From contig NC_090363.1 in NCBI RefSeq assembly GCF_035084215.1, positions 2,480,001 to 2,514,056 of the forward strand: a stretch of 34,056 nucleotides of DNA, given 5' to 3'. Position 1 is the stretch's first letter, and the number at the start of each line of letters is the position of its first letter. The notes beneath the pieces are model-generated. The model ran no database searches. It was given only the letters and a program-made list of their open reading frames with translations, and was not told the DNA's origin. This DNA is from Heptranchias perlo. Lineage: Eukaryota. This document shows positions 4,833 to 30,689 of this stretch, one piece after another. The position numbers and the translations under genes were made by a program.

Positions 4833-4934
4833 GTAAAGGGGGACCCAGGCTGCGCGGCCGAGGTACAATGTTATTTGGCTTTTCACTCCCACCTTTAACC
4901 AAACACTTTCCCCCTGCTGTGAATTCCATTCCAG

Positions 4935-6592: not shown

Positions 6593-6695
6593 AGGCACCA
6601 TCCTCTGGAGTCAGCCATGTTTATAATATTCCTACAACACTGTAGTTCCCGAGTGCCAGGTAGCCTCATGTTAAGGCATTGCTTATTCCCAATAC

Positions 6696-6806
6696 CAGGT
6701 TATAGTCCAACAGCTTTATTGGCAATAAAACCATTGGACTATAACCTGGTGTTGTAAGATTCCTTACATTTGTCCACCCCAGTCCATCACCGGCATCTCC
6801 ACATCA
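6696..6806 (+). mobile_element. Short Penelope-derived fold-back insertion with a 13-bp TSD
   Basis: Inverted CCAGGTTATAGTCCAA / TTGGACTATAACCTGG, 3' end CCCCAGTCCATCACCGGCATCTCCACATCA, flanked by TTATTCCCAATAC at 6683-6695 and 6807-6819. The arm matches the Penelope remnant at 26170-26190. Confidence 0.8.
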
Positions 6807-7409
6807 TTATTCCCAATACATTTAACATTCACTTACTGCGGTTGTTACCATCTTTTGGCCCCCAGTTTACCCTTGTGAGTGTTGCCTGGTTCTTGTACAT
6901 CACTCTGCTGTCTAGACTCCATTCTTTAATTCAATGGGATCACATTTACTCCCGTCCTTCTCCCTCCTGTCCAATGTAAATGCTTCTTGTAGCCACTTCA
7001 ACGTTGCTGACAAGTTCCATTGTTTTTATTTTGTCATCTCTCCCTTTTTTGTTACAAGAACAGCGCCATTTACTTTTCTAGTGCCATTATTATTCTCCCA
7101 GCAGATTGACAGTCAGTTATTCGCATTCCCCGGTTTTCTTTGCAAAAATCTTTTTTCACCAACAACAGGAAGTATGGCAGAAAATTGCTTTGATTTTCTA
7201 GGCTATCCTTGCCTGGGCAGTTTCAGAGCCCTTTTATGATTTCTTACAGTGCCATTTAGCCCTTCCTGCTTTGGTCATTGATCTTCAGTGTGCACAGACC
7301 TACCTCGAGGCAACCAATTCATCCCCCTTACCACACTCATGTCTACCCACCTTCCTACAGCCAGAATCTCTCAGCACCTTACAAACTGCATCTTTGTCCT
7401 AACCCTGTA

Positions 7410-8229
7410 CATGGCAGACGAAATTTAATGTAGAGAAGTGCGAAGTGACACATTTTTGGCAGAAAGAACGAGGAGAGGCAATATAGACTAAATGGTACAA
7501 TTCTAAAGGGGGTGCAGGAACAGAGAGATCTGCGAGTATATGTGCACAAATCTTTAAAGGTGGGCAGGGCAGGTCGATAAAGCAGTTTAAAAAGCATACA
7601 GGATCCTGGGCTTTATAAATAGAGGCATAGAGTACAAAGGCAAGGAAGTTATGTTGAACCTTTATAAAACACTGGTTTGCCCACAGCCGGAGTATTGTGT
7701 CCAATTCTGGGCACCGCACTTTAGAAAAGATGTGAAAACCTTAGAGAGGGTGCAGAGGAGATTTACTAGAATGGTTCCAGTTACATGGAGAGATTGGAGA
7801 AGCTGGGGTTGTTCTCCTTAGAGCAGAGAAGGTTGAGAGGAGATTTGATAGAGGTGTTCAAAATCATGAAGGATTTAGATAAAGTAAATAAAGAGAAACT
7901 GTTCCCATTGGCGGAATGGTCATGAACCAGAGGACACAGATTTAAGGTGATTGGCAAAAGAACCAAAGGCGACATAAGGAAAACTTTTTTACACAGCGAG
8001 TAGTTATGATCTGGAATGTGCTGCCTGAAAGGGTGGTGGGAGCAGATTAAATCGTGGCTTTCAAAAGGGAATTGGATAAATATTTGAAGGGAAAAAAATT
8101 GCAGGGCTACGGGGAAAGAGTGGGGGAGTGGGACCAACTGGATAGCTCTTACAAAGAGCCAGCTCGGGCTCAATGGGCCGAATGGCCTCCTTCTGTGCTG
8201 TAACCATTCTATGGTTCTATAATTCTATG
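7410..8229 (+). mobile_element. CR1/HER1-like LINE, 3' ~820 bp (frameshifted ORF2 C-terminus plus tail)
   Basis: Encodes [24 protein letters not shown] and [19 protein letters not shown]; tail gggccgaatggcctccttctgtgctgtaaccattctatggttctat. Confidence 0.92.
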
Positions 8230-8813
8230 TTATCTGGCTTCTGAACTATTTCTTCCTCCATGTCTTGGTCTCCTGCATTATGAGTTGGTGCTTGATCTAA
8301 TTTAATGGTGCAACAGGCTCGAAGGGCTGAATGGCCTACTCCTGTTCCAATGTTCCTATATCCGCACATTTTTGTGGCTTTCTTAATATCTTTACAAGCG
8401 CTCTTCCTGTCGTTAGTGCATCATTTATTATATTATGTGCTTGCTTTCCTAATTCCTTTTCTTGCCGACCCTGCACCTATTTGCAAAAATCCCTATGACA
8501 GGTTCCTAGTGACTCGCTCTCAACATTGAGATGCAGCCTGTCCACTTCACTAAACTCTGATGACTCAGTGGGTTCAACACTATCCATTCGCCTTTGCTAA
8601 TTAGCTTTACAATCGATTTCTTCCATTAGTTCACCTCCCCTCCTCTCAAAGGTCCAAATTTTTCCCTTTAAACTTTAGGCAGATGAGATCAGCGGGTTGC
8701 TCAACACTTCACTATTGAGTCCTTTCATTCTGCAAAGTTGCCCCTCGTTTAATCTGTTTGTACACTGCCATCGGTATGCTGTGCGTTAATATTTGGGTTT
8801 TTGTCTGTTTCAG

Positions 8814-8836
8814 GATAGTACATCCGAGGAGCAGAG
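8814..8836 (+). CDS. TRIM-B exon 4 (23-nt micro-exon)
   Basis: ttgtctgtttcag|GATAGTACATCCGAGGAGCAGAG|gtacga; same length and phase as the TRIM-C and TRIM-D 23-nt exons. Confidence 0.8.
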
Positions 8837-8941
8837 GTACGACACGTTCTCCAAAAATAACTCTGAGCAACATTATAAAGTAGCAAATTGAAGCCTTTGT
8901 TTTATTTTCTGCTGTTAAATATTTCCTATTTGCATTATTAG

Positions 8942-9051
8942 TGAAAACGACTATCAACCAAAAATAGCGGAAGGCAGCCTGTCTCTGGGAGCATTTAAAG
9001 GACCCACCCAGTATAGAGTGTGGAGAAATGTGATAGACGTTATCAACCCTG
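8942..9051 (+). CDS. TRIM-B exon 5 (110 nt; homologue of the 116-nt linker exon with a shifted acceptor)
   Basis: (S)ENDYQPKIAEGSLSLGAFKGPTQYRVWRNVIDVINP(G), matching the paralogue motif LSLGVFKGPLQYTVWKEMIDSISP; donor CCTG|gtacgg. Confidence 0.8.
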
Positions 9052-9160
9052 GTACGGAGGTCTTTTCCTGTTTTCTTACTTAACCCATAAAGTCCTCAAT
9101 AACTATGCACATCTTGAGAATATGAGACAAGAGTACAGGATGTAAATATTTCATACCGAC

Positions 9161-9415
9161 TTCAAATAAGAAAATAAATTAAATAGTAGCATGGAATCCG
9201 GTTCATTCGTGGTTTATAATACAACTATCAAACAATAATCAAAACTATTTTAGAAGAAATCGATCAATCTAGTCCATTCATTGGTAAGAAACACTAATCT
9301 AAATCATTAAGTCTGTCAGTGTTTCTTTTGTAGCTTAAAAATGGAAAAATAATGCAGAAGGACATTCACAACTGATCTGGTCAAATCACTTTCGGGTGAT
9401 AATACAGGAAGTGCG
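9161..9415 (+). repeat. Diverged local direct duplication, copy 1 (copy 2 at ~10303-10560)
   Basis: Collinear similarity by eye; the core 9210-9244 matches 10352-10386 at 34/35 bases. Confidence 0.75.
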
Positions 9416-10088: not shown

Positions 10089-10123
10089 GCTGTGCAGCGT
10101 TTAACAAAGGGACTACTTCTTGA
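10089..10123 (+). CDS. Candidate short terminal coding exon of TRIM-B (GCAAFNKGTTS*), giving a ~306-aa RBCC-only protein
   Basis: Strong acceptor ctaac...aaatcttttcttttccag|, stop at 10121-10123 when joined to exon 5, AATAAA at 10360-10365. Alternative ends exist. Confidence 0.35.
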
Positions 10124-10302
10124 TTTGCTTTGACTCCTTAATTACTTCTCTCAGCCTCGGCCATGTCCTGCGCTAAAGATCTTATCCAGGTCCCCACTCG
10201 GGACCAATCTGTTGTTCTGCACAGGATGAAACACCAGATTATTTTAGGTCCCATCTTCAAGTCACACATCACGAAATGCCAAACTAAACCTTTCGTGCTG
10301 GT

Positions 10303-10560: not shown

Positions 10561-12141
10561 TCAGGCAACCCTGAGCCAAGGTGGTCCAGAAATCACTTGT
10601 TAATTGCTTGAGAACTGGAAAAGAATGAAACGTCACTATGAGCGCAATTTCAAGCGTGAATTTATAGTAAGTTTTCAGAATTGCTTTGGTTTTTCTCGTA
10701 CTAATAGTGGTAACCCCCCTCCCCTCAAAAAATACCCTTACTCAGGTGGCTGTTACATCGAATTATATAGAAATTACAAAATAGAAACAGGCCGTTTGGT
10801 CCATCCAGTCCTGGACAGTCCTTGGTCCGTATCTTCTACAAGGTCATTTCAACTTTCGGCGATAATATAAAATGGGCGATTTCGGACCCGTTATAAAAAC
10901 CGCCAGATTGAGAGGAACAAATGACCCCCCATAAAGTGAATTTCTGTAGGCTGTTCGACAACAGTCAGCGCAGCCGAGCCCAATCCAATCCTCAAGTAAC
11001 ATTTCCACAAAAAAAAAATCTAGGAGTTATCACCAGGTCGCAATCAGGAGTCAGAATCCTGTCTATTTTCCCCTTGATATTTCACGGTACTGAGGCGAAC
11101 AGCGGGCCTCCACTCTGCAGAAACCAGGGATGAAAGCTGAAACCTTTCTGGTCGCTATACTCGCTCGCTAATGCATCTACCACTCAGCCATCACGTGGAC
11201 TATTTTTTTGTTGAGTTAAAATTGCAGAGGAAACCAAGCAGTGACATTAACAGCGTCTCACAGTTTTGAACACACGTGTGGAACATTACTGGACTCAAAA
11301 GAAATAAAAATGTCAAGTTATCCAATAAAACCAAAAAGGTGACGGTGCTCCTTTTGTACTTCAAATAGACTTAACGAAAGACATGTGTGCAGAAGTTTCC
11401 CCAGAGTGTTTATTTGCTTATAAATACATATTCAAAAGTATATAAAGTACTGAAAGCAGTACTACATTTCATCTGCACCTTCAGAGATGTTAAGAATCAA
11501 TTTATACTATCTATTATGCCACACTTATAATTATAATTAAATATATTTATATCCACACATTTACCTCTTGCAGATTTGTCCAGCATTATGTTCCTAGCGA
11601 TATCTCCAATATGTGTGTAGAAAAGTTATGAGTCGCGCATGTCCCATTTCTAGCGTCCCATGGGGGGTGATTTTAACCCCCAAGAACGGGTGGGTTGGGG
11701 GTGGGTGGGAGTTGAAAATAGCTGTATTTTTTGGGGTCGCGACCGCAAAATTTCCGGACTTTGCATTCCCAGTGGGAAGCCTGGACTTTTACCCGCCCAA
11801 GTTAAACCTGGAAATAAAGCCGGGTTGCGACCCAAAAAAAAAACAACTGTTTTCAGCTCCCACCCCTTCAAAAAAAATATTGTTCCGTCACTCTTCAATA
11901 AATATACCGAAAAAATGTCAATCTGACCTCTAAATGACCGGAGGATCATCCAAGAACAATCAGCCTCTGATTGGCTAAGAAACACACAGCAATTACATCC
12001 GTTGGCTTTAAAGGGACTCACCAACTTTATACAGAGTTGATTTTCGGAAGTCATGATGTGGAGATGCCGGTGATGGACTGGGGTTGACAATTGTAAACAA
12101 TTTTGCAACACCAAGTTATAGTCCAGCAATTTTATTTTAAA

Positions 12142-12180
12142 TTCACAAGCTTTCGGAGGCTTCCCCCTTCCTCAGGTGAA
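12142..12180 (-). ncRNA. Minimal type I hammerhead ribozyme motif (Penelope-type)
   Basis: Minus strand reads UUCAC-CUGAGGA-A-GGGG GAAGC CUCC-GAAA-GC-UU-GUGAA. Confidence 0.75.
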
Positions 12181-12235
12181 CGATGTGAAAAAAAAAATAT
12201 ATTTAATTATTATTATTTTTTTTTTTTTCACATCG

Positions 12236-12274
12236 TTCACCTGAGGAAGGGGGAAGCCTCCGAAAGCTTGTGAA
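12236..12274 (+). ncRNA. Minimal type I hammerhead ribozyme motif (Penelope-type)
   Basis: Stem I UUCAC/GUGAA, core CUGAGGA and GAAA, stem II GGGG/CUCC, palindromic AAGCUU stem III; predicted cleavage between 12269 and 12270. Confidence 0.75.
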
Positions 12275-14841
12275 TTTAAAATAAAATTGCTGGACTATAA
12301 CTTGGTGTTGTAAAATTGTTTACGATTTTCGGAAGGGGAGAGACCCTCCCACCTGCCGTGATCAGCGACTTAGGGACGCACAAGTCTTATAAATACAGAT
12401 TTCTTTCCTTACTGCACTTATCTTATGGACTTTGACCACAAACCTGAGACCATTCCAAATTCACGTCGGCCCTGTTTGGATGCAAATAAATTAAGAACAA
12501 AAAAAAAAGACCCTTGAAGAGAGATTTTGTTCCAAGGTCTGCATTCTTTAAAGGCTGGGGGGGGTCTTTCTGCAAAAAGGATGGGAATATATCTCACGGC
12601 TCAGCAGCGGGCTGGGGTCTTGTTTTCTCGGCTCTGCTCCTCCTGGCCCCACCATATTAAAAAAATTAAAACCAACTTTGACCGTGTTCTGAGCGGCCTC
12701 CAGCGGACGCTTGCAGGGCAGCTGGTGAGGCCTCGCTCCACACATTCGTACCTCAAAATTGCAGAACAGGGTCCAATGTACGTCACGGAACCCGGGTTTG
12801 CAGATTCCGTGGCTCCCCCCCGGAATCAGGCAGGAGTTCCCACTGCCCAACTCGGCACCCAACCCAAGGTGGTCATGGCTGAAACGCCAGCGTAAACTTT
12901 AATTCCATTCCCAGGCGACCGTCACTCCATTTCCGCCAGGAGAGGGGGGGTCTTAATATCGGGCCCGGTGAGTTCAGGATGTAGAGTCTGGAGCTGGATG
13001 CAAATAAAATTACAGCACAGAAATAGGCCATTCGGCCCAACAGGTCCAGGCCGAATAAAAAAAGCAACACGTTTAGTTTATCTTTCTGGGATTCAATTAA
13101 GCACCGAATCGCCTTTTGTTTAAGCGCTGGTTCTATTGTTTCTCTAGTTATTCTCTAGTTTAATATATATTATAGCCCTTGGTGTTGAACTAATCCATCT
13201 CAAACACGGCGATGGAGGGTCACCGTCCACCTGTGGAGCAACATTAGAGGCAGGAAGGTCACCAGGTCCCTGCCCCGCACACCTCATTCTACCCGGTAAC
13301 TTCCTCTCTACAATTGACCATCTATTTATTCCTTCTCTCCCCTCCTCCTTTCCCCCAGCCCCACAGAGGCCCTCGCTGATATTTCAGTTCCCAGTTCCGA
13401 TACAGGGTGTATATCCAAAATGTCAATCCGTCTTCTCTCTCCACATGTGATGACCGACCTGTGTATTTCCAGCATCTGTCCATCAGATTTCCAGCTGTTT
13501 ATTGCGCGGGTCGTGGAAATGGTTATTAATTTCATGTTTACTGGCCTCTTGTTAACCAACAGGGAAACCTTTTAGTGAAGCAAATAAAGTGAGGAAATTG
13601 ACTTACCAAGAAGCTGCTTTTCACAGTTGGAACTGTCCTCAGAATTTATCCCAGATCACTTCTTACTCTGTTTTATTTTTATTTCCCTCTGTGTAGATGT
13701 CCCAAGTATTTTTATGTTTGGTCAGGTACACATTTTCCTGGAAATTGAGGATATCACCGGAGGTGTAAAGAGCCAGGGTGGAATTTTACGAGGCCGTGTG
13801 TAACTGGCAGAGCCTCACATGGTCCGGGCAGTTTATCGGAAAATTGCTCTTTCATTGCCCGCGATGTGAGTGACGTGAGTGGGAGGGAAATCGAGGGCAG
13901 TCCGCCCGCAATGCTGTGATCAGCCGGGCGCAGCATGTGAGGCCCCACTGGTGAGAGGGACCTCCGCAAATTTCACCTCAAGTTGATATCACTCCCGGGA
14001 AACCAGACTGAACGGGGGCGATATTGGTCTTTGGTCAATTTTACACTACCGCCCAAATCCAATTTCACACCCACAATTTCTTCATTGATCTTTTTTTGTT
14101 AATGAATTTGCATCCAACCAGGGTTCACGTGATTTTAGAGCAGTCTCACCGCCTTTATTACATTCTATTAATTTAACAATTCAAATAAAGCAAATGAAAA
14201 GAAAAAACAGTGTGGTCAGACAAAAACTCTTAAGCAGGAAGTCCAAGCACTGGTTACTAGTCTATCAGTAACTTTGTTACTAATCACTGCAATATCACAG
14301 TGAACATTTAGAAGTGCAAGCCCAACTAATGGGTGTGATTTTGTCAAATTGCAGAACTAACTAGCACTGGACGCTTGTTTCTGTGTTCGATCAAGTGATC
14401 GAAGGCACGTTCTTTCTAAAGGAGTGTTGCGATATACTTTAAAAAATAGAAATTTCAGGGGTATTTGAACAGCCTGAACCCTCCCTGCTAACGCCCCTGG
14501 ACATTACAATATGCAGGATGTTAAAGTATTACTACATACAGGACTTAGCAATGCACGAGATGTTTCTTCACTGGTGCTGTTCAGGAAGCTGCAATAAGCT
14601 AAACAGGTGGCTCTCGGGAAGGAATTTGGACATATTTTTGAGTATTTGGCATTCAAAATTTTATTTTCCAAGCTCTTACAAAGGGCAGAATAATGACAAC
14701 ATATAATCATGACTACTAACTTTATTAATATGTTATAGATGGCATAACAAAATGGGAATATAACCATTTCTGTAAGTTACTGAATTACATAAACCCTGGG
14801 CAAAGAGCATGCATTACTTCCTTGCCGTCTAATGCCTTCTA

Positions 14842-15225: not shown

Positions 15226-15239
15226 TGAATGTCGTCAAT

Positions 15240-16928: not shown

Positions 16929-17479
16929 TCAGTGACCTTTAACCCCACAGATTGTCAGCGGTGCTGAGTTTTTCCCGCCATCATTCAGTCCCGGATTGAA
17001 GATGGGAAAGAGTCTCTCGGTGAAAGTGTGGGTGAAAGTGTGGAGATGGGACATGTTGCCCACATTGTAAAATGACACCTGTCCACCCTCATAGTCCAGG
17101 TACACCCCGATCATCCAGGGATCCACACTCGGGGTGAGGGGGGTCGGTGAGGGGGAAGTGAGGGCAAAATAGCCACATCCAGGTAACAGCCACACAGCCC
17201 AGTATCCGGCCTCAGGTCCCAGGTTGATTCCCCCTTTCCTGCTGACAGACTCTCGGGCCACTCCCATAACCCACTCAGTCTTGTCCCCCACCTCCACCTC
17301 CCAGTAGTGTCTCCCTGATGTGAATCCCTCCGATCCCAGGACACAGGGCCAGGGATCAAACCTCTCCGGGGTGTCCGGGAGCCGCTGCCGTTTGTCTCCG
17401 AGTCTCACACTGGTCTGGTCCTCAGACAGGATAAGCCGGGGATGGGCTGTGTTCAGATCTAGAGTCAAACAGGCTGGAG
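16929..17479 (-). CDS. TRIM-C exon 6: PRY/SPRY (B30.2) domain, terminal coding exon
   Basis: cccccag|CTCCAGCC; [17 protein letters not shown]...[19 protein letters not shown]...[16 protein letters not shown]...[11 protein letters not shown]; stop at 16929-16931. Confidence 0.95.
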
Positions 17480-20400
17480 CTGGGGGGAAGTTAAAATAAC
17501 ACAGTCAGTGATTCAGTTTCTTGCTGCGATTTATCACAGTAGGTACAGCACTGAAGGAGGCCATTTGGCCCATCGTGCCTCTGCTGGCTCTTTGAAAGAG
17601 CTATCCAATTAGTCCCACTCCCCGGCTCTTTACCAGAGCCCTGTCATTTTTTTCCCTTCTAGTGTTTACCCAATTCTCTTTTGAAAGTTATTATTGAATC
17701 TGCTCCCACCGCCCTTTCAGGCAGCGCGTTCCAGATCAGAACAACTCGCTGCGTAAAAAAATGTTTCCTCATCTCACCTCTGGTTCTTTAGCCGATCACC
17801 TTAAATCTGTGTCCTCTGGTTCCCGACCCTTCTGCCACTGGAAACAGTTTCTCCTTATTTACTCTATCAAAACCCTTCATGATTTTGAACACCTCGATCA
17901 AATCTCCTCTTAACCTTCTCTGTTCTAAGGAGAACAAATCCAGCTTCTCCAGTCTCTCCACATAACTGAAGTCTCTCATCCCTGGTACCATTCTGGTAAA
18001 TCTCCTCTGCACCCTCTCCAAGGCCTTCACATCCTTCCTAAAGTGCGGTGCCCAGAATTGGACACAATACTCCAACTGAGGCCTAACCAGTGTTTTATAA
18101 AGGTTCACCATAACTTCCTTGCTTTTGTACTCTCTGCCTCTATTAATAAAGCCCAGGATCCCATATGCTTTTTAACAGCCTTCTCAACTTGTCCTGCCAC
18201 CTTCAAAGATTTGCGTATGTGAACACCCCCAGGTCTCTCTGTTCCTGCACCCCCTTTAAAATTGTACCATTTAGTTTATTTTGCCTCTCCTCATTCTTCC
18301 TACCAAAATGTATCACTTCACACTTCTCTGCTTTAAATTTCATCCGCCATGTGTCTGCCCATTTCACCAGTCTCTATCCTCCTGAAATCTGTTACTATCC
18401 TCAACATTGTTTACTACATTTGGGAGTTTGAAATTATACCCCTTATATCCAAGTCCAGGTCATTAATATATATTAAAAAGAGCAGTGGTCCTAATACTGA
18501 CCCCTGGGGAACACCACTGTATATTTCCCTCCAGTCTGAAAAACAACCATTCACCTCTACTCTCTGCTTTCTGCTTTATTCATACAATTTCCTGTTTAAA
18601 GTGCCAACCCAGGGGATTCCCGGGACCTCCGGTGTTTTCTGTTATTGGAAACTGCTCCCACCCGGGGGTTTACGCTTCTGGGACCGCTCTGACCTCTGGT
18701 CACCACGGCGATCCCGATCCGCTGCCAGGGACCCTGTGGCCGCCCCCCCCCAGTCCCCTGCGGTTCTCAGCGCCTGCAGAGTGACCCAGGGGTCTTTAGA
18801 GGTACATGTGGAATAGACTGTGCGGGCTGCAGCGTTCCTTGGAAACGCAAGAGGTGGAAAGGTACAGACCTGTGGAGAAGGGAGAGGAGAAAAAGATTTA
18901 AAAGGAGGGGAACTGCTTCAGAGGGGAAGAGAGAACCAAGGGGAGAAGGGAAATTAATTGGAATAAAAGTGAGCAGAAGAAAGGAGAGATTCGGCAGAGG
19001 AAACGAGGGAAGGAGCTACCGCAGAGGGAAATAGATAAATGGGGGAGATAAAGAATTCATGGAGAGAAAACTAGAAGAGTAGAAGCAAAGGAATAGAGAA
19101 GAGGATAAAAAAGCTGCAGCTCACTCGATCAGTCCAACAGTCTGACCAGAAATGCAAGAAAAACTGGAAGGGGGCAGCCCCAAGAATCAGAGACCCACCA
19201 CCCCTCCGCCAACAGAAAATAACACCCTGAGTACAGCCGGTCAATACAATTATATCCATGAATATCAACAGACTCCAACACATAATCAGGCGAAACAAAA
19301 CTGATCTACATAAAAGGACAGGTGGGAGTAGCATTTCTACAGGAGACCCTCCTCACCACCCTCAGAACACACCAAGTTTATGAGTGAGTGGGTGGGACAA
19401 ATGTCTCCGACTCAGCCAGGAGCTGGAGGTAGTCACACTAATCAACAGGAACCTCCCCATTACTCTGGAGATACACATTCCTGGAGAAGGAGGCCGCTCC
19501 ATCCTAATGAAATTCGAATAACAGGAGAACCCAAAGTGATGCTTCAGTTCTGTGTCCCGAGTGAGGAGTCCCCCCGCGTTCCCCACATCAGCATTCCTCA
19601 CACTCGCCCCACGTATGGACAACACAGTAACCATGAGTGGAGACCCGAACTGTGATCTTCACTCCCAACGGGTCAAGCTCCCAGCGGACACGGGGCACGA
19701 GGACTCGCAGCCGGGCTAATCCGAGGTCAGAGTAGTGGCCTGGGCCTAGTGGATGTATGGTGAGCCCACATCCCACAGGGTGGGAATTCACCTCCCACAC
19801 AAGACACACCCTGGGATAAACTACTCCTTCCTGAAGCAACCCCGCCTACCCTGTTGTGATAGGAGGTTAGCAGGACTTGGACCAAACGTGCTCCATTCAG
19901 ACATCGGAGCCTCAAACCTGCCTTTCGACATGACTCCGAGTTCCTGTCTACCTCTAGGTGAAGCTCCCCCTCACATATACCCTAGGGTAGAAAGTGCATG
20001 AATTATTGCACACAGTCACACTGAGCCCTTATCTCAGATGGTGAGCTTGAAGTTGGGAAGGTCTCGCCAACTTTTACCAGGCCACAATCCCAGACTTTTC
20101 TCCCCTCCGACTGAGCCTCCTTCAGTATGGACTGGAGATAAAGAACCAGAATTCATCCCCATCACGTTAATACATTTAAAAAAAAGGAAATTCATCCCCA
20201 CCAGCTCCTTCATACTGACTATAAAATATTGGCCAAGATCCTGACCTCCAAACTAGACACAGACGTCAGTGATCATTTTAATCTGGGGTCTGGGAGCCGG
20301 TTTACGCTCCTCACATCTGGATTTATAGATCAGGAAAAGGAATATAAGAGTTTTACCGGGGTTAATGGCGTCTATCATTTCTCTCCACGCTGTGTACTGT

Positions 20401-23400
20401 AAAAGGCCATCGAACTTTCCGATTGGCAGCTTGTTATCTGCTACTGACAGTAAATTATTGTCCTCACTAATCCTGTAAAAATATTAAACAGTCGATGTTA
20501 TGAATTGACCATAAACACTTTGCTGAGTTAGTCTAACAGAATCGTTACAGCACAGATGGAGGCCATTTGGCCCATCGAGTTATTGCCCCAAACTGTGCAG
20601 AGTTTCAGTAAAGACCATGTCCTACCTCATCTTCTGACGCGTTTCCTCCTGAAATAAATAAAACACAAATCTGAGTTGACAGAGACTGACCGTCTATATC
20701 CGGACAGCAGAAATTACCCCAAATTGTTACAAGCTGTTGATCATTCTGAATTCTCACTGCTGCCAACACACGGATAGAAAGAGGATATATCGAAAAATCT
20801 GATTTGTGAGTCAGGTTCTGGAAATCAACATCAGTCCCACTCACAGAGTGATTCTCACACCCACCGTACAACACACACACACTCACACTCACCGTACCAC
20901 ACACACACACTCACACCCACCGTACCACACACACACACACTCACACCCACCGTACCACACACACACACACTCACACTCACCGTACCACACACACACACTC
21001 ACACTCACCGTACCACACACACACACTCACACCCACCGTACCACACACACACACACTCACACCCACCGTACCACACACACACACTCACACCCACCGTACC
21101 ACACACACACACACTCACACTCACCGTACCACACACACACACTCACACTCACCGTACCACACACACACACTCACACTCACCGTACCACACACACACACTC
21201 ACACCCACCGTACCACACACACACACACTCACACACTCACACCCACCGTACCACACACACACACTCACACCCACCGTACCACACACACACTCACACCCAC
21301 CGTACCACACACACACACTCACACTCACCGTACCACACACACACACTCACACCCACCGTACCACACACACACACTCACACCCACCGTACCACACACACAC
21401 NNNNNNNNNNNNNNNNNNNNNNNNNNNNNNNNNNNNNNNNNNNNNNNNNNNNNNNNNNNNNNNNNNNNNNNNNNNNNNNNNNNNNNNNNNNNNNNNNNNN
21501 NNNNNNNNNNNNNNNNNNNNNNNNNNNNNCACTCACACCCACCGTACCACACACACACACTCACACTCACCGTACCACACACACACTCACACTCACCGTA
21601 CCACACACACACACTCACACTCACCGTACCACACACACACACTCACACCCACCGTACCACACACACACACTCACACTCACCGTACCACACACACACACTC
21701 ACACCCACCGGACCACACACACACACTCACACTCACCGTACCACACACACACACTCACACCCACCGTACCACACACACACACTCACACCCACCGTACCAC
21801 ACACACACACTCACACTCACCGTACCACACACACACTTACACTCACCGTACCACACACACACACTCACACTCACCGTACCACACACACACACACTCACCG
21901 TACCACACACACACACTCACACTCACCATACCACACACACACACTCACACTCACCGTACCACACACACACACTCACACCCACCATACCACACACACACAC
22001 ACACACCCACCGTACCACACACACACACTCACACTCACCGTACCACACACACACACTCACACCCACCATACCACACACACACACTCACACTCACCGTACC
22101 ACACACACACACTCACACCCACCATACCACACACACACACTCACACTCACCGTACCACACACACACACTCACACCCACCATACCACACACACACACTCAC
22201 ACTCACCGTACCACACACACACACTCACACCCACCATACCACACACACACACTCACACCCACCGTACCACACACACACACTCACACCCACCGTACCACAC
22301 ACACACACACACACTCACCGTACCACACACACACACACACACTCACACCTACCGTACCACACACACACACTCACACCCACCGTACCACACTCACACACTC
22401 ACACCCACCGTACCACACACACACACACACACTCACACCCACCGTACCACACACACACACTCACACCCACCATACCACACACACACACTCACACTCACCG
22501 TACCACACACACACACTCACACTCACCGTACCACACACACACTCACACTCACTGTACCACACACACAGACTCACACCCACCGTACCACACACACACACTC
22601 ACACTCACCGTACCACACACACACACTCACACTCACCGTACCACACACACACACTCACACTCACCGTACCACACACACACATTCACACTCACCGTACCAC
22701 ACACACACACACTCACACTCACTGTACCACACACACACACTCACACCCACTGTACCACACACACACACTCACACCCACCGTACCACACACACACACTCAC
22801 ACTCACCGTACCACACACACACACTCACACTCACCGTACCACACACACACACTCACACTCACCGTACCACACACACACACTCACACTCACCGTACCACAC
22901 ACACACACACTCACACTCACTGTACCACACACACACACTCACACCCACTGTACCACACACACACACTCACACCCACCGTACCACACACACACACTCACAC
23001 CCACCGTACCACACACACACACTCACACTCACCGTACCACACACACACACACACTCACCGTACCACACACACACACTCACACTCACCATACCACACACAC
23101 ACACTCACACTCACCGTACCACACACACACACTCACACCCACCATACCACACACACACACTCACACCCACCGTACCACACACACACNNNNNNNNNNNNNN
23201 NNNNNNNNNNNNNNNNNNNNNNNNNNNNNNNNNNNNNNNNNNNNNNNNNNNNNNNNNNNNNNNNNNNNNNNNNNNNNNNNNNNNNNNNNNNNNNNNNNNN
23301 NNNNNNNNNNNNNNNNNNNCACTCACACCCACCGTACCAAACACACACACTCACACTCACCGTACCACACACACACACACCCACCGTACCACACACACAC

Positions 23401-25931
23401 ACACTCACACTCACCGTACCACACACACACACTCACACTCACCGTACCACACACACACACTCACACCCACCATACCACACACACACACTCACACCCACCG
23501 TACCACACACACACACTCACACTCACCGTACCACACACACACACACTCACACCCACCGTACCACACACACACACTCACACTCACCGTACCACACACACAC
23601 ACTCACACTCACCGTACCACACACACACACTCACACCCACCGTACCACACACACACACTCACACTCACCGTACCACACACACACACTCACACTCACTGTA
23701 CCACACACACACACTCACACCCACCGTACCACACACACACACTCACACCCACCGTACCACACACACACACTCACACCCACCGTACCACACACACACACTC
23801 ACACTCACCGTACCACACACACACACTCACACCCACCGTACCACACACACACACACACTCACCGTACCACACACACACACTCACACTCACCGTACCACAC
23901 ACACACACTCACACCCACCGTACCACACACACACACTCACACTCACCGTACCACACACACACACTCACACTCACCGTACCACACACACACACTCACACTC
24001 ACCATACCACACACACACACTCACACCCACCGTACCACACACACACACTCACACCCACCGTACCACACACACACACTCACACCCACCGTACCACACACAC
24101 ACACTCACCGTACCACACACACACTCACACTCACCGTACCACACACACACACTCACACTCACCGTACCACACACACACACTCACACCCACCGTACCACAC
24201 ACTCACACTCACACTCACCGTACCACACACACACACTCACACTCACCGTACCACACACACACACTCACACCCACCGTACCACACACACACACTCACACTC
24301 ACCGTACCACACACACACACTCACACTCACCGTACCACACACACACACTCACACTCACCGTACCACACACACACACTCACACTCACCGTACCACACACCC
24401 ACACACTCACACTCACCGTACCACACACACACTCACCGTACCACACACAAACACACTCACACAAACACACACACACTCACACACACACACTCACATTCAC
24501 ACACTCACACCCACCGTACCACACACACACTNNNNNNNNNNNNNNNNNNNNNNNNNNNNNNNNNNNNNNNNNNNNNNNNNNNNNNNNNNNNNNNNNNNNN
24601 NNNNNNNNNNNNNNNNNNNNNNNNNNNNNNNNNNNNNNNNNNNNNNNNNNNNNNNNNNNNNNNNNNNNNNNNNNNNNNNNNNNNNNNNNNNNNNNNNNNN
24701 NNNNNNNNNNNNNNNNTGGATTACAATGTGAGTTCCAAGAGAATATTAAACCTTGGGCAACACAGAAATAATTACAAGCTAAGTGTCAAGATCAGTGAAA
24801 CTCATTCCTGGGGGGTTTGCAGGTATTTATACCAGACAGTGTGGAGCGGATTAATTCGGTGACAACAAAACCGCCCCGGAATAGAAAAAAAAACAATCGA
24901 TCGGTTTAAATCCGTTTCCAATTATTCCGCAAAAGCTGCATTTATTTTAAAATTGTTATTAGTTATTTTGTGACTGTGTGCACTTTCACTGAACTAAACT
25001 GAAATATAATCCTCACCTTCAGAAATATCAGCCAGTCTTTTTGTTCCATCCGTTTCTGTAACTTTGAGAGCTTCTCCTGAATAGAATTTAAATTCTCCTG
25101 AATTTCTCGAAGATTTTCCTCCATTGTTTCTAAAATCTTCCCTTCTTGTTCCCTGAGATCTCTGATTAAACGCTGCTCTTTCTCAGTGAGAATCTGGTGC
25201 ATTTTAGCGAACTCGGATGTGATGTGGGTCTGCAGGCCGCTCGACTGTTCCTACAGAATTAAAAAATGTGAAACATAATAATGTACCGCGATAAAGGGAA
25301 ACAAAACTAACCCAGATCCCAGGAAATCACCTTACCCTAACTTCAGAAATCTGCTGTTTTTGTTTCAGTTCCGTTTCTTGAACCGCCGTTTTCTTCCCTG
25401 TGAGAGAATCTAAGGAAGATTTCAGCTGATCCTGGGATTGGGATAGAAAATCACAGAATAAAGTGTTAGACCATGAAAATGTGATAAAATAATCAGGTGA
25501 TCAAATCTGTTCCATTTTACCTTGTACATTTCAACAGCTTCTTTAATCGGCATGAAGTTGTGAGATTTGTGTTCCCGCGAATCTCTACAAATAAGACAGA
25601 TCAATTTCTGGTCAGTTTCACAAAACAGCTTCACTTCTTCCTGATGTTCCTCACAGTGAAGTTTATTTTCCTTCTCTTTCCGATTCAGGTTTAATTTTCG
25701 AGCTTTCTCGGCCAGACTCGCTAAGACCCGATTAACCCTGAGGTTTCTTTCCGGAAACTCCTCTCTACATTCCGGGCAGGAGTTTATCTCCTTCTTTCCC
25801 CAACACTGTGTGATACAGGAGCGGCAGAAGTTGTGCCCACACTCCAGTATAACCGGATCGGTGAAGAAATCAAGGCAAATGGGACAGTTTAAATCCTCTG
25901 TCAAACGCTGCTCCTGCTGCCTGGAAGCCAT
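16929..25931 (-). CDS. TRIM-C complete gene: RING-B-box-coiled-coil-PRY/SPRY E3 ligase (A33/NF7/TRIM39-69-like), 476 aa; complement(join(16929..17479,20357..20472,20626..20648,25017..25250,25336..25431,25521..25931))
   Basis: Six exons of 411+96+234+23+116+551 = 1431 nt, all GT-AG, with a continuous open frame. Confidence 0.92.
17535..18575 (-). mobile_element. CR1/HER1-like LINE, 3' ~1 kb, in TRIM-C intron 5
   Basis: [19 protein letters not shown]...[17 protein letters not shown], an upstream [14 protein letters not shown] region, and the tail near 17545-17590. Confidence 0.92.
19350..20260 (+). mobile_element. Highly degenerate L1/Tx1-like ORF2 remnant
   Basis: Scattered motifs in the expected order: EWVGQ (endonuclease), HKTHPGINY (SRIDY-like), F.PITL and [11 protein letters not shown] (start of RT). 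Confidence 0.55.
20357..20472 (-). CDS. TRIM-C exon 5 (116 nt)
   Basis: ttttacag|GATTAGT...AACCCCG|gtaaaa; [38 protein letters not shown]. Confidence 0.9.
20626..20648 (-). CDS. TRIM-C exon 4 (23 nt)
   Basis: tttatttcag|GAGGAAACGCGTCAGAAGATGAG|gtagga. Confidence 0.88.
20854..24531. repeat. ~28-bp minisatellite ACCGTACC(AC)nTCACACYC in TRIM-C intron 3, with internal N gaps
   Basis: Directly visible; N runs at 21401-21529, 23187-23319 and 24532-24716. Confidence 0.97.
25017..25250 (-). CDS. TRIM-C exon 3 (234 nt, coiled coil)
   Basis: ctgtag|GAACAGTCG...CTGAAG|gtgagg. Confidence 0.92.
25336..25431 (-). CDS. TRIM-C exon 2 (96 nt)
   Basis: cccag|GATCAG...GTTAGG|gtaagg; [32 protein letters not shown]. 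Confidence 0.92.
25521..25931 (-). CDS. TRIM-C exon 1: RING plus B-box 2
   Basis: [39 protein letters not shown]...CPEC...CEEH...FCETD...CLIC...HKSH; donor AAG|gtaaaa. Confidence 0.95.
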
Positions 25932-26193
25932 GATTTGTTTCTGAACTTCCTGATTCAAACTGCTGGCATCAGGTGGATCAGTATGTGTGAGTCCTCGCCC
26001 TTCCTCCCTTTTTCCCCTCTACATTTTCCCAGCCTTAGTAAAAAGGTAAAATGCCCGTTTGTCTCTCAGTCTGATGATAGGTTCACCCAGAAGCGTCATA
26101 TCCAACACTGAGTGGATTTTCCCCTTCACAATCCTGCATTCGGTAACACCTGTAAGGAGTGGCACAACACCAGGTTATAGTCCAACAGCTTTA

Positions 26194-26565
26194 GAATCAT
26201 AGAAGTTACAACATGGAAACAGGCCCTTCGGCCCAGTTTATACCACTAAGCTAGTCCCAATTGCCTGCACTTGGCCCATATCCCTCCATACCCATCTTAC
26301 CCATGTAACTGTCCAAATGCTTTTTAAAAGACAAAATCGTACCCGCCTCTACTACTGCCTCTGGCAGCTCGTTCCAGACACTCACCACCCTTTGAGTGAA
26401 AAAATTGCCCCTCTGGACCCTTTTGTATCTCTCCCCTCTCACCCTAAATCTATGTCCCCTCGTTATAGACTCCCCTACCTTTGGGAAAAGATTTTGACTA
26501 TCTACCTTATCTATACCCCTCATTATTTTATAGACTTCTATAAAATCACCCCTTAACCTCCTCCT
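26194..26565 (-). mobile_element. CR1 LINE 3' end nested in the Penelope remnant
   Basis: MRGIDKVD...TRGHRFRV...FFTQRVVSVWNELP...FKKHLD; tail (plus strand) acaggcccttcggccc. Confidence 0.88.
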
Positions 26566-26580
26566 CTATTTTATTTGAAA

Positions 26581-26617
26581 TCACAAGCTTTCGGAGCTTT
26601 CCTCCTTCGTCAGGTGA
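26581..26617 (-). ncRNA. Minimal type I hammerhead ribozyme motif in the Penelope 3' region
   Basis: Minus strand reads UCAC-CUGACGA-A-GGAG GAAAG CUCC-GAAA-GC-UU-GUGA. Confidence 0.78.
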
Positions 26618-27249
26618 GTGCAGGTTTCCATAAAGGCACAGCATATATAGTCAGAGAACAATGCCTGGTGATTACAGATAATCTTTCCAACTGCCCGTTA
26701 TCACACCTCCCGGCAGAGATATAATCAAAGCAATCAAAGGAGTGGATGGTGTTCAGACAGAGAAACATTACATCCCAGACTACTGAATACACAAACGGTC
26801 AGAACACAAAGACAGATAGAGAGAGAGAGACACCCGAAAGGCAAAGAGAGAGAGAATGCCCTGTTGTATTAAAAACAGATAACATTTGTTCGCTGGTGGG
26901 GTAACGTGTAGCGTGACATGAACCCAAGATCCCGGTTGAGGCCGTTCTCATGGGTGCGGAACTTGGCTATCAATTTCTGCTCGACGATTTTGTGTTGTCG
27001 TGTGTCTCGAAGGCCGCCTTGGAGAACGCTTACCTGAAGATCGGTGGCTGAATGTCCTTGACTGCTGAAGTGTTCCCCGACAGGGAGAGAACCCTCCTGT
27101 CTGGCGATTGTTGCGCGGTGTCCGTTCATCCGTTGTTGCAGTGTCTGAATGGTCTCGCCAATGTACCATGCTCTGGGGCATGCCCAAGCGATAAAGACTA
27201 AAATCAACTTCACTGTATTTTCTAACATACTTTCATATTTCAGAGACCA

Positions 27250-28530
27250 CTCTAAAGTAAAAATACTCAATCAGAGGAGGGCCAATTTCAATGGGATGAG
27301 AACAGATCCGGCCCGGGTAAATTGGAATCAAAGATTGTCAGGCAAAACTGTAATTGAACAATGGGCGGCCTTTAAAGAGGAGATGGTTCTGGTACAGTCC
27401 GGGCACATTCCAACGAGGGGGAAAAGTAGGGCAACTAAAGACCGAGCTCCCTGGATGACAAAAGAGATAGTGAGTAATATAAAACGGGGAAAAAATGGTG
27501 TCAGGTTGATAACACAAGTGAGAACCAGGCAGAATATAGAAAGTTCAGAGGGGAAGTGAAAAAGGAAATAAGAGGGGCAAAGAGAGAGTATGAGAGTAGA
27601 CTGGGGGACAACATAAAAGGGAATCCAAAAGTCTTCTACAGGCATGTAAACAGTAAGCAGGTAGTAAGAGGAGGGGTGGGGCCAATTAGAGACTAAAAGA
27701 GATCTATTCATGGAGGCAGAGGGAATGGCCGAGGTACTAAATGAGTACTTTGCATCTGTCTTTACCAAAGAAGGAGATGCTGCCAGAGTCTCAGTAAAAG
27801 AAGATGTAGCTGAGATACTGGATGGGCTAAAAAATGATAAAGAGGAGGTATTAGAAAGGCTGGCTGTACTTAAAGTAGATAAGTCACCCGGTCCAGATGG
27901 GATGCATCCTAAGTTGCTGAGGGAAGTAAGGGTGGAAATTGCGGAGGTACTGGCCATAGTCTTCCAAACATCCATAGATATGGGGTGGTGCCAGAGGACT
28001 GGAGAATTGCAGATATAAGGATAAACCCAGGAACTACAGACCAGTCAGTTTAACCTCGGTGGTGGGGAAACTTTTGGAAATGATAATCTGGGACAGAATT
28101 AAAAGTCACTTTGACAAGTGTGGATTGATTAGGGAAAGCCAGCACGGATTTGTTAAAGGTAAATTGTGTTTAACCAACTTGATAGAGTTTTTTGATGAGG
28201 TAACAGAGAGGGTAGATGAGGGGAATGCAGTTGATGTGGTGTATATGGACTTTCAAAAAGTATTTGACAAAGTGCCGCATGGTAGGGTTATCATCAAGAT
28301 TGCGGCCCATGGAATAAAGGGGGCAGAAGCAACCTGGATACAGAATTGGCTAAGGGACAGGAAACAGAGAGTAGTGGTGAATGGTTGTTTTTCGGACTGG
28401 AGGGAGGTGTACAGTGGTGATCCCCAGGGGTCGGTGCTGGGACCACTGCTTTTCTTGATATAAATTAATGACTTGGACTTGGGTGTACAGGGCACAAGTT
28501 CAAAATTTGGAGATGACGCAAAACTTGGAA
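27250..28530 (+). mobile_element. CR1 LINE ORF2 internal fragment (frameshifted RT region)
   Basis: [73 protein letters not shown]. Confidence 0.93.
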
Positions 28531-29517
28531 AGTCCATTTGCTTGCAACCCACAACATTGTGACTTCGAATTAAAAGTGCTGCAGACTGTGCCAAGCTGAC
28601 ACTGATTGACATTCAATGCCTGTTCTGTATTTTCATCAGATTTATTTATTGATAATTAACAATCAGATACATTGACACGATCTCATTGACAAGTGACTAC
28701 CAGTATATTCACACATTTCACATTATCCAGCGACGAGGACAATTTAGCACTGATAATAAGGCTGGCAGCTCGACACTTGGCCGATCAGGCCCTGGCCCTT
28801 TCCCACAGTACACATACTGACAATGAGGAGTAGGGGCACAATCCTTAAAATATTCAAACAGTTTATATGGCAGATCAGAGAGCTGGTCCTGCAGACTGAT
28901 CCAGTGCACAATGTCGATGCTCAGTCCTGCCATTCAGATTGAAGAGAATGATAAATTTCATTATCTTGATGAAATACCCACTCTTACTTCAATTGTTGCA
29001 CAAAATGTTTTTAAACTTCAGGACAGAGACACCATTAGTGCCCGTGCTGATCTGTAGTATCGTTTTGGGGGTGGGGTTGGGCAGTAACACAAAACAAGCT
29101 GTAAACACAATCAACAACCCATTTTACACTCCACCCAATTCGCTTTTCCATTGAAGTTGTAAAACCAGCTGCTGATTTTTGCTGTCAGCCGTTTCGCAGT
29201 GGCGCCAAGATAAATTTCACTCCCTTCTGTCCCTGTAACTTTATGGAGGGCTCGTCACTCCAATTTCTGGCCACCTCCAGTCTTACTATAGTAATTCTCT
29301 CCCCCCCGGACTACCTCTCGCACCTTGTATCCCATAAATAGGCGACACTGCATCATATCACAGCCTCTCTCTCCCCACCGACAGAGTAAATCGGCGGGTT
29401 AGAAATAAAAGGACTTTAAAACACAAGAGACAGTCCTGGAAACCTTGGAGCTCAATTGCTCGGAGCAGTGCTAGTTACACTCCGATTAACAACAGGAAGT
29501 GTTAGTACAGAGAATCT

Positions 29518-30059
29518 AAAATGAAGTCGTGGGAAATAAAATGCAGTTAATGATCGCCAAGCCAGCAGATTTTCAGCGATTGCATGTTTCACGCAAACAG
29601 GGACTGAAGTCGGGGTAGAGCCTCTCAGTGAAGGTGTCAGTGAAAGTGTGGAGATGGGCCATGTTGTCCGCATTGTAAAACGACACCTGCCCCCCTCTCA
29701 TGGTCCAGGTACACCCCGACCTTAAGGGGCTTCACACTCGGCCTGAGACGGGTGGAAGGTGGAGTGAGAGAGCCTTGTAGTCATTTTCCAATCCTCAGCC
29801 ACACCATCCAGTATCCAGACTCTGCGGTGGCCACCTCATACCCCACTCCTGGCCGCCCCCACATCCCACTCAGTCTTGTGGCCCACGTGAACTTCCCAGT
29901 AGTGTTTTCCTGATGTGAATCCCTCAGAGCCTAGGACACAACGCCAGTTGTTAAACCTTTCCAGAGAGTGAGGGAGCTGCTTCCATTTGTATGCAGTTCA
30001 CACACGTCTTCTGTCCTTGGAATGGGCCGTTTTCGGATCCAGAGTCAGAGAGGCTGGAA
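29518..30059 (-). pseudogene. TRIM-D exon 6: decayed PRY/SPRY exon
   Basis: Intact acceptor tctcctag|TTCCAGCC then VPASLTLDPKTAH[5-codon deletion]SKDRRRV* (stop 29998-30000). Downstream [22 protein letters not shown] and [10 protein letters not shown] are broken by more stops and frameshifts. Confidence 0.9.
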
Positions 30060-30180
30060 CTAGGAGAAGGTTTTTTTTTTAAAAAAAAAGCAATATCAGA
30101 TTTGTTTTCTGGCTGTAATTTATTAAAACAATGAGTGACTTTCCTTTTTAAAATGTGCGCTCTCGGCTGCATAATTTAAT

Positions 30181-30271
30181 TGTAAACAATTTTACAACAC
30201 CAAGGACTATAACTTGGTGTTGTAAAATTGTTTACAATTGTCAACCCCAGTCCATCACCGGCATCTCCACA
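30181..30271 (+). mobile_element. Short Penelope-derived fold-back insertion with a 12-bp TSD
   Basis: TGTAAACAATTTTACAACACCAAG / CTTGGTGTTGTAAAATTGTTTACA hairpin, shared 3' end CCCCAGTCCATCACCGGCATCTCCACA, TSD GCATAATTTAAT at 30169-30180 and 30272-30283. Confidence 0.82.
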
Positions 30272-30689
30272 GCATAATTTAATGACTGCTGCTTCAGATC
30301 GCTCTGCAAAAAAAGATTAAATTATGAGGACAGGTTGTTTAAACCTGGTTTTATTCCCTTGAGATGGAGGTTTCAATGGCGATTTAACCTTTTTGCAACT
30401 GAGATGAAAATTTGACCCTAGCTCTTAAGTAAGCTCTTTTCAATTGTAAATGTCATGTACATATGTTTGATATACAAACCTGAATTATATATAATTATAA
30501 ACCTGAATACATCGCATCCATCCACGGATGTGTAGATCCATCTCCCCATCAACAATTCTGTTTGCCTCTGAAATTATGTGCAAATGTTAGGAAGATGCTT
30601 AGCTTCCATATCCTATGACATTCCGTTGTCCACTTTTTTTTTTAAAACGAAGACATTACCCTTCATAGGATAACAACTCCATTTACACA

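Follow-up and report, generated by a model that had tools for sequence, protein, structure and literature searches.

Short self-complementary insertions in the shark Heptranchias perlo attributed to an endonuclease-containing Penelope-like retrotransposon

Introduction

Endonuclease-containing Penelope-like elements (EN+ PLEs) leave complex insertions in which, according to the passages on Pen2a_Av in PMC3846280 and the Fig. 2 legend of PMC8557442, an inverted, 5'-truncated pLTR copy occurs with an optional tail of 30–40 bp and a target-site duplication (TSD). How PLEs form the inverted copies is described as an open question in PMC8557442. For an anole PLE studied in vitro, both target strands are cleaved and extended, reverse transcription starts at two sites, one on either side of the tail, within a stem-loop, and the protein is a predicted dimer (PMC11167929). 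Hammerhead motif pairs are found on opposite strands, 100–700 bp apart, in Schistosoma (PMC4209133), and in lizard and frog the Penelope repeats undergo heavy A-to-I editing (PMC5625713, PMC10636886). A literature search that mostly excluded subscription papers, and hence offers no proof of absence, found no paper stating both-strand priming for PLE inversions or the TSD lengths of shark elements.

Results

The window, meaning the whole stretch of DNA analysed, comprises 34,056 nt of Heptranchias perlo contig NC_090363.1 (GCF_035084215.1; forward-strand positions 2,480,001–2,514,056). It holds three insertions, I1 (6696–6806), I2 (12051–12323) and I3 (30181–30271; window positions throughout), and their anatomy, TSDs, end positions, hammerhead and link to an endonuclease are direct observations.

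6683..6695, + strand: left TSD copy of I1, 13 nt; last 6 nt agree with the element at 5/6 where the mirror arm starts
6696..6721, − strand: inverted tail-less arm of I1, 26 nt; starts ~20 nt inside the tail boundary
6723..6806, + strand: sense arm and tail of I1, CCAGG subfamily; small 6-bp hairpin at 6753–6768
6807..6819, + strand: right TSD copy of I1, 13 nt
12039..12050, + strand: TSD copy of I2 on the tail side, 12 nt
12051..12092, − strand: tail of I2, 42 nt, single copy; contains the 27-nt terminus, final ATGA
12093..12197, − strand: sense arm of I2, 3' part of the pLTR; one private mismatch at 12105
12141..12181, − strand: minimal type I hammerhead motif in the I2 sense arm, from a descriptor search; architecture as in PMC4209133
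12198..12218, no strand: filler between the I2 arms, 21 nt, AT-only, after A/T runs of 10 and 13
12219..12323, + strand: inverted tail-less arm of I2; second hammerhead copy at 12235–12275
12324..12335, + strand: TSD copy of I2 on the mirror-arm side, 12 nt
30169..30180, + strand: left TSD copy of I3, 12 nt
30181..30204, − strand: inverted tail-less arm of I3, 24 nt, perfect
30204..30271, + strand: sense arm and 35-nt tail of I3, CCAAG subfamily; 6-bp hairpin at 30221–30236
30272..30283, + strand: right TSD copy of I3, 12 nt

An initial annotation made from the letters alone had placed three insertions with clean TSDs at these positions, and the duplications are indeed exact (13, 12 and 12 nt for I1, I2 and I3, respectively), so that a stagger of 12–13 nt holds in these three of three copies. 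When 20,000 position pairs were drawn at random (3 nt of slack), no duplication of at least 11 nt arose and the maximum, 10 nt, occurred once; the AT fraction of the TSDs is 0.69, 0.58 and 0.83 versus 0.56 for the window. The shared 3' terminus, 27 nt long, occurs exactly three times in the window with no mismatches, and allowing up to 9 mismatches adds one site, with 9 mismatches, that is chance-like. The arms, already described as varying in length, stand head-to-head over 26 nt in I1 (3 mismatches), 105 nt in I2 (1) and 24 nt in I3 (0), separated by spacers of 1, 21 and 8 nt, within insertions that total 111, 273 and 91 nt and differ in their centres. A single-copy 3' part of 35–58 nt is carried at one end only, making the insertions asymmetric, with the tail on exactly one arm in 3/3 and the mirror arm always without it. 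This part measures 35 nt in I3, 42 nt in I2 and 58 nt in I1, the last because the I1 mirror arm starts further in, and many genomic copies end at 12051–12054. The two subfamilies (CCAGG and CCAAG) were also recovered, I1 and I3 differing at 6/68 sites and I2 and I3 at 1/68. The mismatch at position 12105 of I2 is private, with 99.4% of the DNA depth having the base of the other arm.

All three insertions (3/3) combine 5' truncation, an inverted upstream copy and a TSD. An inverted copy with a one-sided tail and a TSD is the published PLE anatomy (PMC3846280, PMC8557442), so these stumps are no MITEs and are not new in kind; the description of them as MITE-like does not suit insertions with a tail on one side only. 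Tandem or partial-tandem units with direct pLTRs are absent from the window, and tandem units elsewhere are hinted at by one 'goes back 131' joint and by contig-table rows.

The window also contains a longer relative of the arms.

26151..27185, − strand: 5'-truncated, tail-less PLE remnant with, in order, the C-terminal half of GIY-YIG (26872–27183), 3' UTR, hammerhead (26579–26619) and pLTR end

The match between the arms and this remnant (26.15–27.19 kb), noted earlier, stands, but the 27-nt terminus is not in the remnant. The remnant is interrupted by a LINE fragment at about 26194–26567, retains neither the RT nor the first half of the EN core, and has no TSD longer than 6 nt around it. 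Both histidine motifs of the endonuclease are present and the Pfam GIY-YIG match has E=0.0076, below the curated cut-off; peptide identity reaches 89% to homologue P0002 (RT plus EN, 643 aa) and 59% to the 882-aa P0022. One of the 36 homologues, a Scyliorhinus gene model (P0014; E 6e-08 to I2), has EN, hammerhead, pLTR and tail in order. Together with the order of the remnant, this model links endonuclease, hammerhead and tail, bearing out the proposed Penelope origin, and places the terminus and arms at the 3' end of an ORF-bearing EN+ PLE. A single ORF that joins the RT to a C-terminal, CCHH-bearing GIY-YIG endonuclease is found at the family level, in homologues rather than in the stumps themselves. 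The stumps are almost certainly heavily 5'-truncated insertions of a shark endonuclease-containing Penelope-like retrotransposon, made by its own RT-GIY-YIG protein. The CX2-5CxxC motif of the RT-EN linker, which defines the Neptune/Nematis clade (PMC8557442), is present in 20/36 homologues, including P0002 and P0022, and the remnant is without that region; the parent element is probably Neptune-type.

The hammerhead ribozyme was absent from the earlier reading of the window. The minimal motif has three window matches (both I2 arms and the remnant), none in I1 or I3 and none in 200 shuffles. An Rfam search gave no hammerhead match and only sub-threshold hairpin matches, miRNA hits among them, and folding z-scores of the tail region and the hammerheads, from −0.14 to −1.14, are not significant. 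Metazoan retrozymes, defined by canonical type I hammerheads in head-to-tail repeats of 150–450 bp (PMC7229834), were rejected as an identity for the insertions, in which the motif is minimal, inverted rather than tandem, and absent from I1 and I3. A metagenome scan for host-derived copies returned no loci, and the 22 loci obtained with a shorter pattern were rejected as chance: most are GC-rich, the I1/I2 pLTR body is in 0/22, and one 18-nt match to the remnant is chance-like.

The proposal that each integration makes a new hairpin is upheld by the inner breakpoints, which lie about 43, 104 and 22–31 nt upstream of the tail boundary in I1, I2 and I3, with no fixed breakpoint. Within each insertion the inner ends of the two arms are coupled (3/3; offsets of about 0–1, 0–10 and 8–9 nt), with p at or below about 0.005 if truncation were uniform and independent. 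The mirror arms of I2 and I3 have outer ends no more than 1 nt apart at the pLTR/tail boundary, and the end of the tail-less remnant coincides with it or falls a few nt away. The 3' foot of a 6-bp hairpin forms this boundary; the hairpin persists in both subfamilies, with one compensatory pair between them, and has no significant folding z-score. The mirror arm starts at the foot in 2/3 insertions, and in I3 the 3' foot of the hairpin at 30221–30236 is the end of the mirror arm. No loose-end cluster at the tail-less boundary was seen among the 24 of 472 rows listed.

In I1, three of four neighbouring bases differ between the arms, and it is the tailed arm that deviates: the mirror arm is identical to the remnant over 25/25 nt and also to loose ends in presumed RNA runs. 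CpG decay is a weak explanation for the mismatch because the family base there is TG in the remnant and the loose ends. The end of the I1 target agrees with the element at 5/6 nt, the best of 76 positions, and microhomology at I2 (4/6, with 14/144 positions as good) and I3 (3/6, 17/62) is unremarkable. Family contigs apparently show only a 4-nt run (24 and 11 contigs, agreement 0.46–0.63) where the I2 arms have 10 and 13, as if each arm had been lengthened independently at a single stop site. In I3 the spacer consists of element sequence that continues the tailed arm, and a perfect 10-bp palindrome lies at the 5' break of the remnant (27176–27185; 42 such in 29,947 positions). Among the contigs listed there were two strand-change joints (12090/12179 and 12112/12174), given without polarity; because palindromes are collapsed during contig assembly, the contigs are no firm guide to arm coupling. 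Hammerhead cleavage was considered as a source of the truncation: the ends of I1 and I3 lie downstream of the predicted cut, but I2 continues across it and family depth has its peak on the ribozyme, so cleavage is not required.

Contigs from eight sequencing runs, all of one sample and none recorded as RNA (that label is presumed), were compared with window positions 11850–12200 only. The family is very abundant, with about 15,000 matching contigs per DNA run, and the two presumed RNA runs had 4,005 and 1,895 contigs with pLTR sequence. For A>G/T>C changes, 10/13 rows showed an enrichment of 2.9- to 1549-fold that was present in both of the presumed RNA runs, counted on contigs rather than reads with all copies pooled and no locus assigned, and no other substitution was enriched in both (0/7 rows). 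The enriched changes are nearly absent from DNA of the same sample, and the pattern looks like ADAR editing.

Discussion

Priming from both target nicks is the reading favoured here over snap-back, although as a complete account it has only about an even chance of being right. The endonuclease would nick both target strands 12–13 nt apart, and both 3'-OH ends would prime reverse transcription near the 3' end of the element, a start at the distal site giving the arm with the tail and a start at the proximal site (the small-hairpin foot), or at nearby microhomology, giving the tail-less mirror arm. Both cDNAs would halt at about the same place, either the same RNA end or the same stop site, and would be joined head-to-head by microhomology or AT-rich filler, and fill-in of the staggered cut would yield the TSD. 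We infer the two priming events, the shared stop and the joining step. In favour of the model are the one-sided tail in 3/3 insertions, the compensatory pair of the boundary hairpin, the agreement of the I1 target end with the element, the lengthened runs of both I2 arms, and the extension of both strands by the anole PLE and its predicted dimer. Mirror arms that begin at the hairpin foot fit the two start sites of reverse transcription seen in vitro (PMC11167929), and priming on both strands is the simpler account of the near-fixed boundary in I2 and I3 and of the I1 arm differences, because a mirror arm of family sequence beside a deviant tailed arm is not expected from copying the tailed arm. 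Against it, the coupled inner ends need the extra assumption of a shared RNA end, the I3 spacer continues the tailed arm as fold-back predicts, and the anole study, on the Poseidon clade rather than the one here, found no start-site difference between strands and no primer homology (PMC11167929). The unremarkable microhomology at I2 and I3, the lack of a loose-end cluster at the tail-less boundary among the 24 of 472 rows listed, the non-significant folding of the boundary hairpin and the sample of three copies also count against it.

Snap-back, the default of the initial annotation, would have a single cDNA primed at the tail end truncate, fold back, be copied to about the tail boundary and jump onto the target overhang. 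It predicts the coupled inner ends directly, and it accommodates the identical or nearly identical arms of I2 and I3 (the sole I2 mismatch being private), the I3 loop made of element sequence and the palindrome at the remnant 5' break; junction palindromes are read as self-priming in PMC3846280. As a default, however, it is undercut by the clustered I1 differences with the family match on the mirror arm, by an I3 centre stem of at most 1 bp and an I1 loop of 1–3 nt, and by the near-fixed outer end, for it gives no reason to halt at the tail boundary, where RT of the anole element is known to start. We regard it as a credible second choice that falls short of an even chance; three copies cannot decide between the two.

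Pre-formed palindromic templates are improbable; on this reading hairpin RNAs, whether they arose by self-priming on antisense or read-through transcripts or represent non-autonomous masters, would be mobilised whole in trans. Self-priming on an antisense template has been proposed (PMC3846280) and pLTR sequence is abundant in the presumed RNA runs, but the three copies have three centres, even I2 and I3 at 67/68 identity, and a 105-bp perfect duplex (−178 kcal/mol) would presumably be a poor RT template. A DNA-transposon MITE, or a fold-back that arose artefactually in sequencing or assembly, is largely refuted and scarcely credible, for despite the palindromic look, and although no listed contig spans a whole insertion (the comparison covered the right-hand part of I2), a MITE needs TIRs at both ends and a fixed consensus where these copies have asymmetric ends, a single-copy tail at one end, differing lengths and centres, a hammerhead and collinearity with a PLE endonuclease, and read fold-backs should not make exact TSDs on both sides, while an independent short-read contig (11850–12074) crosses the flank-TSD-tail junction of I2 without mismatch.

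If priming from both nicks is taken further, a dimeric Neptune-type PLE protein might routinely prime both strands of the 12–13 nt cut on one RNA, with one subunit per start site, every insertion being a fresh palindrome and thousands of self-folding hairpins forming a major source of ADAR-edited dsRNA; this extension is tentative, and we would sooner expect it to fail than to hold. If true, the shark hairpins would resemble the inverted Alus of primates with no second copy needed, and the minimal insertions would prove from genomic sequence the steps still missing in PLE integration. The hairpins offer a structural reason for the heavy A-to-I editing of Penelope repeats and are open to mis-annotation as MITEs or microRNA precursors. 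Mostly ordinary, they are yet handy for testing the origin of the mirror half: with both junctions and the centre inside a single read, and with the family so abundant, tabulating copies across the genome could separate dual priming from fold-back.

Comparison with known systems

Insertions of the Pen2a_Av type share with the shark stumps a head-to-head inverted copy, a tail at one end, a TSD and small junction palindromes. The TSD is 9–10 bp in Adineta versus 12–13 in the shark, whose sense copy, unlike that of Pen2a_Av, is only 68–150 nt and without an ORF, so that the whole insertion is a hairpin. LINE-1 twin priming, reportedly described by Ostertag and Kazazian in 2001, resembles the mechanism proposed here in that both target ends prime cDNA and an inverted 5' segment lies within the TSD. 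In an example given in 10.1101/2024.12.14.628481, the twin-priming pieces are adjacent, non-overlapping parts of the RNA, whereas the shark arms copy the same segment, and the stumps have no poly(A).

The anole element PAc (Poseidon; PMC11167929) likewise has two discrete 3' ends bracketing the tail, each spread over a few nt, a pLTR hammerhead and AT-rich targets. It belongs to another clade, homologues of the shark element carrying the CX2-5CxxC linker, and a term search of PMC11167929 turned up nothing about inverted copies, stagger or TSD. The minimal hammerheads of metazoan PLEs (PMC4209133, in which the word "shark" does not occur) have, as here, an unpaired base before stem II, G10.1-C11.1 and a palindromic helix III stub; the spacing of the two I2 motifs is tighter than that of the Schistosoma pairs. 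The shark hairpins, as putative ADAR substrates, can finally be likened to the MITEs and palindromic Harbinger repeats of Xenopus (PMC5625713), which fold on themselves and are ADAR substrates without a partner copy, but those repeats have a DNA-transposon origin and a fixed palindromic consensus, whereas the centre of the shark hairpins differs in each copy.

Anatomy of the insertions

The initial annotation placed three small hairpin insertions in the window, and all are present at these loci, bounded by target-site duplications (TSDs):

6696-6806 (+), I1, insertion bounded by identical direct repeats of 13 nt
12051-12323 (-), I2, insertion bounded by identical direct repeats of 12 nt
30181-30271 (+), I3, insertion bounded by identical direct repeats of 12 nt

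Flanking repeats of at least 11 nt occurred at 0 of 20,000 random position pairs; the stagger of 12-13 nt is read from three copies. The arms face each other head to head, in the order TSD, tail-less antisense arm (mirror arm), centre, sense arm, tail and TSD. The arms measure 26 nt (3 mismatches) in I1, 105 nt (1 mismatch) in I2 and 24 nt (no mismatches) in I3, with spacers of 1, 21 and 8 nt and single-copy 3' parts of 58, 42 and 35 nt, respectively. Because the 27-nt terminus occurs exactly three times in the window, with a mirror arm at all three, the hairpin form was not selected from a larger set. Two imperfect inverted repeats elsewhere, 32644-32831 (89 nt, 82%) and 1614-1766 (62 nt, 76%), have no relation to the pseudo-LTR (pLTR) and no evident long TSD, and are probably old non-autonomous DNA elements.

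Link to a Penelope-like element

At 26151-27185 (-), a 5'-truncated remnant of a Penelope-like element (PLE) retains coding sequence for only the C-terminal half of a GIY-YIG domain (Pfam E 0.0076, short of the cut-off). Its peptide shares 89% identity with P0002, a Heptranchias protein with reverse transcriptase and endonuclease, and 59% with P0022 (882 aa); 36 of 67 candidates matched, the best named ones from sharks. A CX2-5CxxC linker, a Neptune/Nematis trait according to excerpts of PMC8557442, is present in 20 of the 36, a clade hint from motif rather than phylogeny. The remnant runs on through 3' UTR, hammerhead and arm sequence to end at or just past the pLTR/tail junction, and therefore cannot alone link the terminus to Penelope. 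That link, as originally claimed, is supplied by P0014, a Scyliorhinus gene model spanning endonuclease, hammerhead, pLTR and tail in order. Many annotated shark isoforms with this endonuclease fragment (P0001, P0008, P0014, P0027, P0030 and others) are gene models reading into Penelope insertions.

A minimal type I hammerhead descriptor matched both I2 arms and the remnant only (0/200 shuffles), while an Rfam search detected no hammerhead. The tail may end at an ORF start, since its last bases are ATGA and P0022 begins Met-Thr. The remnant's pLTR is interrupted, in an AT-rich stretch a little downstream of the hammerhead, by a LINE 3' fragment in the same orientation (26194-26567), which we take to be CR1-like. 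The remnant stops some 130 nt upstream of a RING-coding frame at 26018, part of a TRIM gene cluster (4407-5448 (+), 16929-17504 (-), 24963-26018 (-) and 29601-30005) whose exons encode RING and B-box domains and a PRY-SPRY domain, alongside a second, decayed PRY-SPRY-like copy. The minus-strand region of this cluster contains a long tandem array rich in CA (20772-24744), which has a unit of about 28 nt and is interrupted by three assembly gaps.

Family abundance and possible RNA editing

In two DNA runs, 14,843 and 15,146 contigs were placed on 11850-12200, nearly all on the element (contig totals, not copy number). At 12051-12054 there is a cluster of loose ends that run on into long unrelated sequence (142 contigs in two listed X1 rows, 261 in four listed X4 rows, both contig sets of these runs), so many insertions have a common tail end, to within about 4 nt. 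The junction of flank, TSD and tail at I2 is covered by one contig with 0 mismatches. All runs derive from one sample, possibly the window's own source, and are thus not independent support for the loci. Contig joints at 12179-12191, one in a presumed RNA run, return from the hammerhead 5' side to the tail end; they point to short pLTR units of about 130-140 nt repeated head to tail at other genomic sites, possibly non-autonomous, retrozyme-like arrays.

Two presumed RNA runs (the label is guessed) from the same sample were compared with DNA across 20 listed variant rows, using contigs rather than reads and with all copies pooled. Among the 13 rows showing A>G or T>C, ten were enriched 2.9- to 1549-fold in both (position 12134: 6.8% and 3.5%, against 0.004% in DNA), the remaining three being DNA subfamily variants; other change types were enriched in 0 of 7. 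At four of the five strongest sites the 5' neighbour is U, the preference of ADAR. Changes on both strands fit a hairpin RNA (predicted folding energy of I2, -178 kcal/mol), and pairing between separate copies is a possible alternative source of duplex. Penelope repeats are heavily edited in lizard and Xenopus tropicalis, according to parts of PMC5625713 and PMC10636886.

Arm boundaries and mechanism

The starts of the I2 and I3 mirror arms, at most 1 nt apart, coincide with the 3' foot of a 6-bp hairpin; the remnant stops there too, or a few nt beyond. Both subfamilies have this hairpin, with a single compensatory pair between them, and it is partly broken in the remnant; its folding energy is not significant. 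For the I1 mirror arm the start lies about 20 nt deeper in the element, where target end and element agree best over 6 nt (5/6; 1 of 76 positions), matches at I2 and I3 being ordinary. Inner ends lie about 43 (I1), 104 (I2) and 22-31 nt (I3) from the tail boundary, varying from copy to copy, while the two arms of any one copy end at most about 10 nt apart (p about 0.005 or less under an independent, uniform model). Each I2 arm closes with an A run (10 or 13) that leads into filler made of A and T only; at this point family contigs seem to carry a run of 4 (low-agreement summaries). As two further listed joints break at 12191, RNA ends or stops may recur at this site. At the remnant's 5' break, a perfect 10-bp palindrome (27176-27185; 42 such per 29,947 positions) may be a micro fold-back or chance.

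Fold-back of a single cDNA and dual priming yield an identical final layout. We favour dual priming, judging it about evenly balanced, in which both target nicks would prime reverse transcription, giving one cDNA per arm; coupled inner ends would then need a common RNA end or stop. It fits the biochemistry of an anole element, where parts of PMC11167929 describe cutting and extension of both strands, two start sites bracketing the tail and a predicted dimer; that work, however, saw neither start site preferred by strand and concerns another PLE clade. Also counting against it, no loose-end cluster was seen at the tail-less boundary among the 24 of 472 rows listed, though these were not chosen by count alone and the subfamilies differ directly beside that boundary.

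The snap-back of the initial annotation, one cDNA folding on itself to copy the mirror arm, is a credible but lesser candidate. It accounts for the coupling of inner ends and for the I3 loop being element sequence, and portions of PMC3846280 take junction palindromes as self-priming, but it leaves without reason both the stop at the tail boundary and the three clustered arm-to-arm differences in I1, whose mirror arm is the family version (25/25 nt against the remnant). Pre-formed palindromic templates are improbable, and a MITE or artefact is very improbable; of the earlier interpretation, Penelope origin stands through P0014, while snap-back ranks below dual priming.

Comparison with known elements

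The anatomy is largely familiar: sections of PMC3846280 describe an inverted pLTR, a 31-bp tail and TSDs of 9-10 bp, and those of PMC8557442 treat an inverted 5'-truncated copy with a one-sided 30-40 bp tail as typical. Hammerhead pairs on opposite strands appear in portions of PMC4209133, whose hammerheads share the build found here (unpaired base before stem II, G-C closing pair, palindromic helix III stub). The present analysis adds one more shark family, an end site at the hairpin foot, the disagreement between the I1 arms and the editing-like signal.
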